Source of the DNA: Escherichia coli
GTDB taxonomy: Bacteria > Pseudomonadota > Gammaproteobacteria > Enterobacterales > Enterobacteriaceae
Assembly (NCBI RefSeq): GCF_050920415.1
Contig: NZ_CP169309.1
DNA: 64,000 nt
Direction: 5' to 3' (one strand)
Positions within the stretch are counted from its first letter, which is position 1; each line of letters opens with the position of its first letter. Shown here piece by piece: positions 41,001-47,000 of the stretch. Made by a program: the position numbers.

Positions 41001-44000
41001 TAAGGAGGAACAATGTCATACTCGCTTTTTGACAAAGACGAGCACTGGCATAAGCCAGAGCAGGCGTTTCTCACCGATGACCACCGGACCATTCTGCGCT
41101 TCGCCGTAGAGGCGCTAATGTCCGGTAAAGGAGCGGTGCTGGTGACGCTGGTGGAGATACGCGGCGGCGCGGCGCGCCCGCTCGGAGCACAGATGGTGGT
41201 GCGCGAAGATGGTCGTTACTGCGGTTTTGTCTCTGGCGGCTGCGTGGAGGCCGCTGCCGCTTTTGAAGCGCTGGAGGTGATGGGCTCAGGCTGCGATCGC
41301 GAAATTCGCTATGGCGAAGGTTCGCCGTGGTTTGACATCGTTCTGCCCTGCGGCGGTGGGATCACGCTGACGCTCCATAAACTACGCTCGACACAGCCTC
41401 TGCTCGCCGTGCTGAACCGCCTGGAACAGAGAAAACCGGCGGGTCTGCGCTACGATCCGCAAGCTCAATCGCTGGTGTGCCTGCCCACGCAAACCCGAAC
41501 GGGCTGGAATCTCAATGGCTTTGAGATGGGGTTCAGGCCATGCGTCAGGCTGATGATTTACGGACGTTCTCTTGAGGCGCAGGCAACCGCGAGTCTTGCA
41601 GCAGCCACAGGCTATGACAGCCATATCTTCGATATTTTTCCGGCCTCAGCCAGCGCTCAGATCGATACCGATACGGCGGTCATTTTGCTGTGCCATGATC
41701 TCAACCGGGAGCTGCCAGTGTTGCAGGCCGCGCGAGAGGCAAAACCCTTTTATCTCGGCGCATTGGGCAGCTATCGAACCCACACGTTACGTCTGCAAAA
41801 GCTCCACGAGCTAGGATGGTCCAGGGAGGAGACAGCGCAAATCCGGGCACCCATCGGGATATTCCCCAAAGCCCGGGATGCGCATACTCTGGCACTCTCC
41901 GTGCTGGCAGAAGTCGCTTCTGTACGTCTCCATCAGGAGGAGGATTCATGCCTGCCCCCGTCGTCGTGATCCTTGCGGCCGGGCGTGGAGAGCGCTTTCT
42001 CGCCTCCGGGGGAAATACCATAAATTAAGAGAAAAATCTGCAGTAGCCGTTTTAGAAAATCACCTAAATCGTTTAAAAGAGCGCCCAACCCATAGTGGGC
42101 GCTCATCGCCTTGTGTAACTTATTCAGCAACGCGCGCCCTCGCCGGACTAAAGCGCACCGGCCTTCTGGCGTGCGGTAACAAAGGTCAGTACGCCAGCGC
42201 ATAGGAGCAGCACGCTACTCATGGCAAACGTACTCTGCCAGCCGAGGTGGTCAAACACGATGCCTCCTGCCGTCGATCCAAGGGCGATTGAAAGCTGAAT
42301 CACCGCGACCATTAGCCCGCCTCCGGCTTCCGCGTTGTCGGGCAACGTACGCGCAATCCATGTCCACCACCCGGTTGGCGCGGCGGTTGCCAGCATGCCC
42401 CAGAGGCCTAACAGCAGCGAGACCATCCAGACGTGATGCCCGGTAAGCATCAGGCTGATGGCAATGACGGCCATCAGTCCAGGTATAGCCATCAGCGTGG
42501 GGTAGAATTTCCTGTTGAGGAATGTCGAAACAACCAGCGTGCCGATAAAACCGGCTACTCCGATAATCAGCAAAATCAACGACAAGCCTGAGGAATCAAC
42601 CAGCGTCACGGTCTCCAGGAACGGGCGCACATAGGTGAATAGCGCAAACTGCCCCATGAAAAACAGGCCACAAGCTATCATGCCGACCACAACCATGCGG
42701 CGGCTAAATAAGCGGAATACCGTGCCAAATGACGTGTGGCTTTTATTCGCATCCATACTGGGCAGGCTGATGCACTGCCAGATAAAGGCGACAACCGCCA
42801 TGGGCACCAGGCACAAGAAAGCGCCTCGCCATCCGACCGTAGCCCCCAGATAGCTTCCCAGCGGTGCGGCCACGACCGTCGCCAGCGCATTACCGGCATT
42901 GAAAATCGCCAGCGCACGCGTGACCTGTTGCTGCGGCACCAGACGAATCGCCGTTGCCGCAGACATCGACCAGAATCCGCCAATCGCCACACCAATCATC
43001 GCGCGACCGATCATATACATCAGATAACTGGAAGCCAGCGCAATAATAAGCCCCGATACGGCCATCAGAACCGTCATTCCCAGCAGCAGGAATTTACGAT
43101 TCATCTTTCCTGCTAGCGTTGAAAGCGTCAGGCTGGTCAGAACCGCCAGTGCGCCGGAGATAGCAATCCCCTGCCCAGCCAACCCCTCCGTCACGCCTAA
43201 ATCGCGGGCAATCGGCGTGAGCAGGCTGACGGGCATAAATTCAGAAGCAATCAGCACAAACACGCACAGGGTCATGGCAAAAATACCGCCCCAGTATGCG
43301 CGCTGATGATGAGGTGATGGTGTTTGGTTTAGCGTCGACATAGTGAAATTTCACGAAGGCCAGGATAAAAGCCACCAGCCTATGGCCGGTGGCTTTGCAT
43401 CAATTCAGGAGAGGTTTTATTTCAGTTTGGTCTGGAAAAATTGTTCGAACTTCGCGAAAGGTATTTTTCCGGCCACGTTATCGTACAGGTCCACGTGATT
43501 TGCCCCAGGTACCACCACCAGCTCTTTATCTTTACTGCCAACCGCCTTGTAAGCATCTTCAGCAAAATAGCGTGAATGTGCTTTCTCACCGGTCACAATC
43601 AGCGTCGGAATGGTGATTTCACTGGCGTAACTCAACAGCGGCATATTCATAAATGACAGCGGCATCGTTGCCGTCCACGCCCCGGTAGAGTTAACGGAAC
43701 GTTCGTGGAAGCCGCGCGGCATGCGATAGTAGTCAAAGAACTCTTTCAGTACCGAATGAGGATTTGCCGGCAGCGTTTCTGGCAGAATGCGCTCGCCCGC
43801 ACTGACCTTGCCGTTGCTATCGACATTAATATCATGACCACCATGAGCGAACGTTCCGCTCTGCGCATCCTTCCAGCGCTGTTCATTCAGATATTGCAGA
43901 ACAGCACGACGGTCGGCGGTAGAATAACGGTCTTCGCCATCCCCCACACCATGGCCCATCGCCCGGCTCATGTCATACATCACGCTGGTAGCAACCGCTT

Positions 44001-47000
44001 TAACGCGGGTATCCATCGCCACGTCGTTCAGCGCCATGCCGCCCCAGCCACAAATACCGAGCAGCCCGATACGGTTGCGATCTACCTCTTTTTGCAGCCC
44101 TAAGAAATCCACCGCCGCGCTGAAATCTTCAGTGTTGATATCCGGTGAGGCGACGTTTCGCGGATAGCCGCCGCTTTCCCCGGTGTAAGAAGGATCGAAC
44201 GCCAGGGTAACAAACCCTCGTTCCGCCAGCGTCTGCGCATACAGGCCGCTGGATTGCTCTTTCACCGCGCCAAATGGCCCACTGACCGCAATCGCCGCCA
44301 GCTTGCGATCGCCACGGTCTTTAGGCAGGTAAAGATCGCCCACTAAGGTGATGCCATATCGGTTCGGGAACGAGACTTTACGGTGATCGACTTTCTGGCT
44401 CTCGGCGAACGTTTTATCCCATTTATCTGTCATGGACACAGGGGCATTAGGATTGGTTGAATCAGCATAACTCATTGTCGTGACTCCACTTAATGATGCG
44501 AAAAGCAGCATGGTCGGCATCGCGGTTTTTAGCGTTCGGGTGAAGGCTTTCATAAAAATCCCCATAAAAAACAACAGAGAGATACAGGTTTCCGACGGAC
44601 AACACTGCGGTGCTTTACTTTGATGGGGTCATTATAGTGAGCAGAATTAGTGCTGATTAGGGGGCGATTAATGCTAAGATTAATACCATATTGTTATAAA
44701 TTAATGCGGAGATTGCCGGCATGAAGGGGGGATGTTTCAATGGCGAAAAGGGAGAACTACAACGAGCTGTACCTGCTTATGCAGGTGGTGCGGGAAGGCA
44801 GCTTTACCGCAGCGGCTCAGCGGCTGGGTCTTGCTCAGTCAGGAGTCAGCCGTTCTGTTCGCGAGCTTGAAGAAAGGCTCGGCGTCCAGCTGCTAGTGCG
44901 CACCACGCGTAAACTGTCGCTGACGCAAGCAGGCGAGCAGCTCTACCAGAAGACGGCATCTGGATTTGAAATGTTAGATCTTGGGCTTGCCACACTGGCG
45001 CACTATCGAGAGACGCCCTCCGGCACGGTGCGTATCAATGCCAGCCAGCACGCGATTGATAAATGCCTGCTGCCAAAGCTGGCGGTATTTAAACAGCGAT
45101 ATCCTGATATCCGGCTTGAACTGATAAATGAGAGCCGGTTCGTCGATATCATCGAGGAAAGATTCGATGCTGGTGTCCGCCTGGGGCCTGAAGTCGGCCA
45201 GGGTATGGTCGCGGTACGCATCACGCCCGATATGGAGATGGCAATTGTGGGGACTCCGGAACATTTTCGTCGCTATGGTTTTCCGCAAACCCCGACTGAT
45301 TTAAAGGCACATCCCTGTATCGCCTATCAGTTTGCCGACGGCAGCGTATACCAGTGGGAACTCAATCAGGATGATAAAAAAATTACCCACCGGCCTGAAG
45401 GGCAATGGGCCCTATCCGACAGCTATATGGAAGCAGAAGCCGCACGGCTGGGCCTCGGATTGGCCTATGTTCCTGTTGAACTGGTTGCGGATGATTTAGA
45501 ACACGGTAAGCTTATCAGAGTGTTGCAGCGTTACAGCCTGCGAATGGAGGGATTGTTTCTCTATTACCCTCATCGCAACGTCTCCCCCGCTCTGCGGATG
45601 GTCATTGATACATTGAAAATCTGAACGTTAACAACGACCGACTCTTCACTGTGCAATATTGTGTCAGGTAGTCACTCTGCGTTCAATTCCAGGGGCCGCT
45701 TTGAGCGAGAAAGAGCGGACTTATCTGTACAAGGGGACTATCCAGCAATGGAGATCACCCATAAGAAAAAAGTACCAGGCTCCCTCGACAACCTTCATCC
45801 GGGAATTTAGCCTCAATCAACATTTTTATATCTGTCAGGTTACTTCATTATGAAAACCGATCAATATCGTTGTTTTTGTTGCAATAGTAGAATACGCGTA
45901 TTTATTCCTCCATTTCTATTAATAACGGCCATAAACTGTTCACTTCACTGATATTTAAAATATGCATCCTTTTCCTGTTTTTCAAGTTGTTCAGCGGCGT
46001 AAGAAAAAGTATTAATTATGAATTCGACGATTTAACCATTTCTGTCTGATTGGTAATCATCCGTGATTAATGCTGGTCTATTGATTACGCCAGCATTAAC
46101 CGCTTAGGGATGTATTCTTCCTGATCATATACCTCCCTCGAAAAGAGAGAAAATAAAACTGTGTCCAATATTACTCTACCACTCCAGACCGAAGCATCGG
46201 TAGAATTAGCAGAACGACTGGTACAATAGATTGGGATAGCGTCATTTGTCAGGTATTCCATTGCCTGACAAATGACAATTTTGAGTCAATAGACGTGCTT
46301 CTTGATCATGTCTTAAAAATTATACCATGAGCCTTATGAAGCATCATTTTTACTGACTGGTGTTAACTTTGCTATCATATAAACTCTGTTCTTAAAAAAC
46401 GCGCCCAGAATTTTATATGATTTCCCTTGTTTTTCTGCCTGTAAAGAAATTTCTTTTTCAGTGCTGTTAATGGTTGAACCGACGGCAGTAATCGTTTTGG
46501 CGACGCTACTGAATGATAATAAAGACAGTGTAACCACAACAATTAAAGAACAGATAGTATTCACGTTAATTCTCCTGACAATTGAGAGGGTGAGTTTTAT
46601 ATACATAGGTATTAAACATGAGTCATATTTACTCCAAGAGAAAATACTCCTTCTGTAATTAAACCTTCATCTCCTTCGGGGTGAGAAATACATAATGCAT
46701 CTTACTATGAAAAACAGGTGGATATAAATTTTCCTCCCTACCTATTTAATAAAACGTGAATATAAAAGTTATTCTTCAGTTTGCAGATGCAGTAGGTCTG
46801 ATGGTAATTTCGGTTGTATCAACGCTTTCGGGAGATTCAATAATATGCCTTACAGCACGGGCAATATCCGCGGGTTGAAGTGCAACAGAACGGTAGGCGT
46901 CCATTGACTTCATGGTTTCCACATGGGTCATGGTTGAAGCCAGTTCACTTTCTACAACCCCAGGATTTACGCAGGTCACACGGATTTTCGAGCTTTCCTG

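Follow-up and report, generated by a model that had tools for sequence, protein, structure and literature searches.

The ovrB-z0347-z0348 module of Escherichia coli O-island 9 encodes an uncharacterised cysteine alpha/beta hydrolase of the PA2218/YcjY clade

A 64,000-nt stretch of the Escherichia coli chromosome (contig NZ_CP169309.1 of assembly GCF_050920415.1; hereafter the window) contains a gene for an alpha/beta hydrolase with Cys in its nucleophile elbow, which lies between genes for a transporter of the major facilitator superfamily (MFS) and a LysR-type transcriptional regulator (LTTR). This arrangement raises the question of what the hydrolase does and what the flanking genes have to do with it. 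A preliminary description of the locus, made from the sequence, called function and substrate unknown; this stands for the enzyme and the transporter, but not for the regulator, which has been published as OvrB (PMC6768210). The reading that we consider most likely, with reasonable though not high confidence, is that of an OvrB-controlled periplasmic Cys-His acyl hydrolase acting on a small ester, lactone, thioester or amide substrate, together with a NepI-like exporter. The three genes are as follows:

42148..43341, minus strand: MFS gene (Pfam MFS_1)
43417..44553, minus strand: alpha/beta hydrolase gene from its likely start (378 aa)
44740..45624, plus strand: LysR gene (OvrB; Pfam HTH_1 and LysR_substrate)

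The trio is the ovrB-z0347-z0348 (z0346–z0348) module of O-island 9 (OI-9) of E. coli O157, i.e. a locus that has already been published. Its counterparts in O157:H7 strain Sakai are ECs_0309 (LysR), ECs_0310 (hydrolase) and ECs_0311 (transporter), with identities to the window proteins of 97.6%, 99.4% and 96.3%, respectively; the first of these values identifies the LysR protein as OvrB. The LysR locus tag was connected with z0346 from the order of the genes and from how PMC6768210 describes the island. OI-9 occupies the chromosomal site between paoD and thrW, as in the window, and comparison with the K-12 locus revealed that K-12 lacks window positions 42024-48157; this gap of 6134 bp matches the published island size (6132-6133 bp; PMC6768210), which supports the identity with OI-9. 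The 3.6 kb around the trio match strain MFDS1022581 at 100% identity and about 915 further complete E. coli records at 95-99%; altogether, 947 of 5426 complete genomes gave a match to this region, nearly always in the chromosome. Both neighbours of the hydrolase gene are as the preliminary description had them, namely a co-oriented gene for a 12-transmembrane (TM) MFS protein (MFS_1, E=3e-38; about 12 hydropathy peaks) and a divergent LysR gene (HTH_1 and LysR_substrate, E = 1e-22 and 2e-34).

The hydrolase open reading frame (ORF) spans positions 43417-44574 on the minus strand, with the ATG at 44553 as the likely start of a 378-aa protein. In Pfam, it gave generic alpha/beta-hydrolase matches only (PETase, 33 bits; Hydrolase_4, 30 bits). 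The DLH profile (PF01738) scored 18.9 bits, below its gathering threshold of 21 bits, and covered residues 146-195 (50 residues). Dienelactone hydrolases (e.g. P91, 4ZI5) share the Cys nucleophile with the window protein (Cys168) and have Asp as the canonical triad acid; here the place of this Asp is taken by an invariant Ala, and the earlier assignment to the dienelactone-hydrolase type had to be abandoned on both grounds. The best NCBIfam match was UilS, restricted to the N-terminal half, and an identification with this acyl-homoserine lactonase family (NF047920) was rejected, since the score was 64.2 bits against an equivalog cut-off of 400; the publication on UilS offers no detail on catalysis. 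The top sequence match in the PDB was PA2218 of Pseudomonas aeruginosa (2HDW; E = 1.8e-125, approximately 60% identity), which has the elbow GICGWGG too, and the next was E. coli YcjY (5XB6; E = 1.2e-43), with the elbow GICAGAG. Both match the hydrolase in sequence as well as in fold. An AlphaFold model built with 31 family sequences had a mean predicted local distance difference test score (pLDDT) of 88.3, with residues 1-32 disordered; the protein has a large cap domain. Full-length similarity to 2HDW and 5XB6, together with the common motifs VKEQ, G-x-C and HxDLYD, places the hydrolase in a distinct PA2218/YcjY clade, and not in the dienelactone hydrolase family. This clade has no curated family name in the libraries searched, and PA2218, a structural genomics target, comes from a different host and context. 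What is new here is mainly re-annotation and testable hypotheses. The superfamily to which this uncharacterised hydrolase belongs is known, and the island is catalogued.

The residues on which a catalytic role would depend are these:

44050-44052, minus strand: Cys168 codon TGT, nucleophile position, the only Cys in the protein
43495..43497, minus strand: His353 codon, catalytic His position in the loop after the last strand, aligned with His238 of PET46
43579..43587, minus strand: Glu323-Lys-Ala325 in the post-beta7 loop, with Ala325 at the canonical acid position

Conservation was assessed in 81 sequences, i.e. the query and 80 species-level orthologues (50-97% identity) from Proteobacteria, Bacteroidota, Firmicutes, Campylobacterota, Elusimicrobia and others. 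The G-I-C-G-W-G elbow with Cys, proposed earlier, corresponds to residues 166-171. In the model, Cys168 sits precisely between strand 157-167 and helix 169-180, and HMMER alignments place it at the catalytic Ser115 of PET46 (8B4U) and the equivalent Ser of 9PJB and 7QJM; Cys168 is at the nucleophile position. The triad of PET46 is Ser115/Asp206/His238 (PMC10495362). His353 follows strand 343-348 of the model, so that the nucleophile at the strand-helix turn and the His after the last strand are both where the alpha/beta-hydrolase fold has them. C168 and H353 are invariant in all 81 sequences, as are A325, H326, S327, D355, K98, Q100, D120, S122, S127, D181, R183, Y276 and H283. The clade elbow reads G-[IV]-C-G-[WFY]-G-G; the second residue after the nucleophile (Trp170) is W in 50 sequences, F in 30 and Y in one, which departs from the small residue of the Sm-x-Nu-x-Sm-Sm pattern (Sm, small; Nu, nucleophile).

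The triad, which was to be checked by profile search and structure prediction, was therefore recovered as far as its Cys and His, with Ala325 replacing the acid of the canonical post-beta7 position (G-x-x-D). Glu323, two residues before that spot, is present in 80 of the 81 sequences, and either it or Asp355 (H-x-D) is a candidate for the third member. Among more distant relatives, the nucleophile is replaced by Gly in five and by Ser in one; four of the five also lack the His, three having lost it together with the Cys and a fourth, P0168, which has Tyr instead, independently. This joint loss of Cys and His in divergent relatives supports a functional Cys-His pair. For comparison, PET46, MHT043-5 (9PJB) and Chloroflexus '202' (7QJM) are lid-containing Ser esterases; they and the fungal DcsB and GrgF have the canonical G-x-x-D acid and use Ser, except for GrgF, which reportedly uses Cys, and all five are 19-24% identical to the window hydrolase.

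The second step concerns the compartment in which such an enzyme would work.

44464..44553, minus strand: signal peptide, residues 1-30, with predicted cleavage between SYA and D (sequence features)

The N-terminus, MKAFTRTLKTAMPTMLLFASLSGVTTMSYA followed by DSTNP, has a positive n-region and a hydrophobic core, with S-Y-A as the cleavage motif (MKAFTRTLKT, AMPTMLLFASLSGV and TTMSYA before the D, with small residues at -3 and -1), as predicted for a Sec substrate. These features, and the export-type N-termini of 72 of the 81 sequences (query included), bear out the signal peptide of the preliminary description. The N-termini comprise 44 Sec-like, 11 lipobox and 17 RR-motif sequences, as well as 9 without any such signal; about 15 of the 17 RR-motif N-termini are convincing twin-arginine translocation (Tat) signals, e.g. 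GRRNLLKMTGTG in alpha- and betaproteobacteria. The signal type differs between taxonomic groups: Sec in enterobacteria, often a lipobox in Bacteroidota, and Tat in alpha- and betaproteobacteria (loci L008, L009, L016, L019, L021, L024, L027, L034, L035, L042, L044, L049, L050, L064 and L075). We may speculate that the use of Tat by a hydrolase devoid of cofactor protects the single catalytic Cys.

For RefSeq and its annotation pipeline (PGAP) the protein starts at Met27 (44475; 352 aa), so that its signal peptide would be lost. Kluyvera, Enterobacter and Aeromonas keep the 26 codons upstream of Met27 as a signal peptide, unrelated export signals replace this region in more distant orthologues, and most database entries have 378 aa, all of which argues against the Met27 start. 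The shorter RefSeq start is thus probably wrong and the hydrolase is, judging from its N-terminus and those of its orthologues, very probably exported. Export would then be a property of the clade, with YcjY as a predicted cytoplasmic branch.

The next question is how the hydrolase gene may be controlled from the divergent side. The intergenic region contains:

44683..44697, minus strand: ATAACAATATGGTAT, conserved LTTR box of the T-N11-A type, centred at about -66 from the predicted start
44650..44660, minus strand: CTAATCAGCAC, conserved element over the -35 (TAATCA, 17-bp spacer), CTAATCA-CAC invariant in six genera
44631..44636, minus strand: predicted -10 hexamer TATAAT of the hydrolase promoter, TA(T/G)AAT in six genera
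44667..44684, no strand assigned: ATTAAT-N6-ATTAAT dyad, ATTAATGCTAAGATTAAT, also present in O157 Sakai

A phylogenetic footprint, for which the intergenic region was aligned from six genera, revealed three conserved blocks: (i) ATT(T/A)ATAACAA…(T/C)AT(T/C)AAT(N)(T/C)TA(G/T)CA, which includes the T-N11-A box, (ii) CTAATCA(G/T)CAC (44650-44660), and (iii) CTA(T/G)AATG (-10 region). Within the box, ATAACAATATGGTAT, there is little or no variation in the flanking ATA and (T/C)AT or in the AAC core. The element CTAATCAGCAC is a probable LTTR activation/repression site, and relative to the predicted start, the box near -66 and CTAATCA over the -35 would form the classical LTTR arrangement. The proposed promoter, which is based on conservation only, was not reported by a generic sigma-70 scan because its -35 (TAATCA) is weak. 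As for the ATTAAT-N6-ATTAAT dyad of the preliminary description, it is indeed present and occurs once in the 64-kb window and in 0 of 100 dinucleotide-preserving shuffles, but as such it is not the conserved operator: other genera conserve the arm at 44679-44684 but not that at 44667-44672. A direct repeat of 15 nt (ATTAATGC..AGATT) is found again at a distance of 33 bp, and the predicted 5' untranslated region folded no better than its shuffles (z = +0.9).

OvrB has been described as an activator of LEE1/ler, in the enterocyte effacement locus (LEE) of enterohaemorrhagic E. coli (EHEC) (PMC6768210). Its full-length identity to PgrR (YcjZ) is 41%, and the gene of PgrR forms with ycjY a divergent pair of the same layout as hydrolase-ovrB. 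In the ycjY and z0347 promoters alike, CTAATCA starts exactly 24 nt upstream of the -10 (TATAGT and TATAAT, respectively), and TTAATC sites lie further upstream in both. A PgrR site was found by systematic evolution of ligands by exponential enrichment (SELEX) in the ycjY/ycjZ spacer, and its regulon is ycjY-ymjDC-mpaA (PMC5934670); RefSeq labels PgrR a repressor. YcjY of K-12 (5XB6) is 34% identical to the window hydrolase and likewise has Cys at the nucleophile position; it differs in lacking a signal peptide and in having a classical G-x-C-x-G elbow, and its gene is co-transcribed with ymjD-ymjC-mpaA and not with an MFS gene (PMC5934670). By analogy, this parallel module strongly suggests that the ancestral role of OvrB was the local control of z0347.

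Two further observations concern these proteins. The lone lead on YcjY in the literature is an old suggestion, made from its GXCXG, that it could be a polymerase of complexed polyhydroxybutyrate (cPHB). In ovrB, window positions 44722-44742 differ from Sakai by one base within a run of G that precedes the ATG at 44740, with the result that the in-frame start in the window is an internal Met (294 aa); ovrB of Sakai encodes 300 aa (MKGNVSMAKR...).

Whether the three genes belong together can be judged from other genomes. A LysR gene of one homology cluster stands beside the hydrolase gene in 24 of 80 loci, in 16 of them immediately upstream and divergent. In about 14 loci, from alpha-, beta- and gammaproteobacteria, an orthologue of the MFS gene (43-91% identical) was found no more than 700 bp away, in variable position, i.e. 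downstream or upstream of the hydrolase gene. Since the regulator-hydrolase pair also occurs without it (Aeromonas, Cricetibacter and two Enterobacter-like genomes), the core consists of regulator and hydrolase, with the exporter as a frequent partner. Recurrent neighbours in Bacteroidota, Firmicutes and others include genes for Cyclophil_like2, CMD-CMD-cupin, hexapeptide acetyltransferases, flavin mononucleotide (FMN) reductase or flavodoxins, aldo-keto reductases (AKR) and short-chain dehydrogenases/reductases (SDR), and AraC/MerR regulators; several of these neighbour proteins bear export signals of their own. Such clusters were seen in gut Bacteroidota, Firmicutes and Melainabacteria (loci L030, L033, L041, L047, L053, L080 and others). 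From its gene content, this recurrent cluster looks like an uncharacterised extracytoplasmic gene set.

The best NCBIfam match of the MFS protein was NepI, a purine ribonucleoside efflux transporter, at 303 bits; as this is below the equivalog cut-off of 584 bits, identity with NepI was rejected. The protein is 40% identical to E. coli NepI over 380 residues, and it is a paralogue, probably with another substrate. Its weaker matches, to sugar and chloramphenicol efflux proteins, suggest that it is probably an exporter. The RefSeq/PGAP start of its gene (43275; 375 aa) appears too short compared with the long start at 43341: the TM1 residues AYWGGIFAM, upstream of the PGAP start, match the Psychrobacter orthologue and NepI. 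Between the two co-oriented genes lies one more element:

43365..43393, minus strand: hairpin (43371-43393) and U-tract (43365-43370), placed after the hydrolase stop and before the MFS start (RNA folding, terminator scan)

This hairpin, followed by UUUUAU, falls within the 75-nt gap between the genes. Its folding energy is -30.6 kcal/mol (z = -4.2), none of 200 shuffles folded as well, and it was also picked up by the terminator scan. In Kluyvera, E. cloacae and Psychrobacter, hairpins of unrelated sequence are found at this position too, which suggests that the structure may attenuate read-through into the transporter gene.

Put together, the module would work as follows. The z0347 precursor would be directed to the periplasm by its Sec signal peptide, where Cys168 of the mature enzyme, activated by His353, would attack the acyl substrate (an ester, lactone, thioester or amide) to give a covalent thioester intermediate. 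The third triad member would lie off the canonical site (Ala325), and would probably be Glu323, unless the enzyme operates with a Cys-His dyad. z0348, encoded beyond the putatively attenuating hairpin, would serve as a NepI-like MFS exporter, the direction of transport being presumed from its relatives. We infer that OvrB, as a local regulator of one sign or the other, would bind the T-N11-A box (about -66) and CTAATCA over the -35 of the z0347 promoter, and that it may respond to a small molecule related to the substrate or product of the z0347 enzyme. Given the conserved native operator and the conserved enzyme partner of OvrB, a small-molecule ligand should exist.

Several observations weigh against this reading. 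The canonical acid is missing, as Ala325, which aligns with Asp206 of PET46, is Ala in all 81 sequences, and the proposed substitute, Glu323, is a Ser in YcjY. Met27 has a GGAG Shine-Dalgarno sequence of its own and is where RefSeq starts the protein. The literature on PA2218, 2HDW and YcjY yielded nothing on function, and deletion of z0347 or z0348 was without phenotype as regards adherence or the LEE (PMC6768210). Finally, the 718 bp upstream of ler in Sakai, scanned with mismatches allowed, contained no T-N11-A box, CTAATCAGCAC or ATTAAT dyad (background expectation of the scan, 0.2-0.6); the reported binding at LEE1 must therefore use a different or degenerate site.

Some of these points are accommodated by a cytoplasmic protein starting at Met27, or by a non-catalytic, ligand-binding relic. 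The PGAP and Sakai annotations with their GGAG sequence and the mutants without phenotype (PMC6768210) would fit, yet Enterobacterales and Aeromonas conserve the 26 upstream codons as a signal peptide, the place of which is taken elsewhere by unrelated signals of the Sec, lipoprotein or Tat kind, the 378-aa form prevails in the databases, and at an overall identity of 50-60% the Cys, the His and about 20 further residues do not vary; we regard this option as very improbable. A true dienelactone hydrolase of (chloro)aromatic degradation with a Cys-His-Asp triad is, if anything, harder still to credit: the DLH match is local (residues 146-195) and below its cut-off, the Asp is replaced by Ala, the large cap domain and the export signal are both atypical for dienelactone hydrolases, and no catechol or muconate pathway genes were found nearby.

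A better case can be made for a function tied to a system of the YcjY/PgrR type, i.e. to murein tri-, tetra- or dipeptides. The 34% identity of the hydrolase to YcjY and the 41% identity of OvrB to PgrR, the divergent layout and promoter elements common to both pairs, and the listing of mpaA in the PgrR regulon ycjY-ymjDC-mpaA (PMC5934670) all speak for it; the neighbour context in other genomes, as far as gene content can tell, resembles a setting for handling small molecules or electrophiles rather than one for recycling the cell wall, and we consider this explanation unlikely, though the strongest of the rivals. Somewhat less probable is an acyltransferase or ester-forming enzyme that passes the Cys-bound acyl group to an acceptor, modelled on GrgF and DcsB, which off-load polyketides in fungi, or on the polyhydroxyalkanoate (PHA)/cPHB synthases with their GXCXG box. 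The identity to those enzymes is only 19-21%, the elbow is G-x-C-G-[WF]-G and not GXCXG, there is no acyl-carrier, polyketide synthase or coenzyme A ligase neighbour, and the periplasm is not a place where activated acyl donors would be expected. The OvrB-controlled, periplasmic Cys-His acyl hydrolase therefore remains the reading that we prefer.

The gene order of the window is ecp – ykgJ – yagU – paoABCD – MFS gene – hydrolase gene – LysR gene – ykgR fragment, continued by a 90-aa ORF, an SDR gene, a second LysR gene, the tRNA-Thr gene thrW and proA. The mapped neighbours are:

46776-47513, minus strand: SDR gene
47597-48496, plus strand: second LysR gene
48624-48699: tRNA-Thr gene thrW

A functional tie of the trio to the neighbouring paoABCD was rejected, since pao neighbours occur only in E. 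coli; no pao genes were found near the trio in other genera, with the exception of one paoD-like match in Rhizobium. For the AT-rich 90-aa ORF (46334-46606, minus strand), which has a signal-peptide-like N-terminus, Pfam gave no match; it probably corresponds to z0344 or z0345, the two hypothetical genes of OI-9, and in Sakai a hypothetical gene of similar size, ECs_0307, occupies the corresponding position. No Rfam family was detected in 42000-46800. In the window, proA comes directly after thrW; the otherwise identical strain MFDS1022581 carries at thrW, beyond the second LysR gene, a P4-like element with the antiviral reverse transcriptases drt3a/drt3b (16015-19301 of its locus, L001). In K-12 MG1655, window position 48158 is joined straight to 42023, and of the second LysR gene (z0342) only 339 nt at the 3' end are retained, as 'yagP', abutting paoD. 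This truncated remnant points to a deletion in the K-12 lineage rather than an insertion in O157, and OI-9 thus looks ancestral and lost in K-12, contrary to the acquisition scenario of PMC6768210.

For the biology of E. coli, the module appears as an ordinary, small-molecule-responsive one, which adds a few new details and does not overturn current views. It nevertheless offers a concrete route to the ligand of a published virulence regulator, and this ligand of OvrB could link a gut metabolite to LEE expression.

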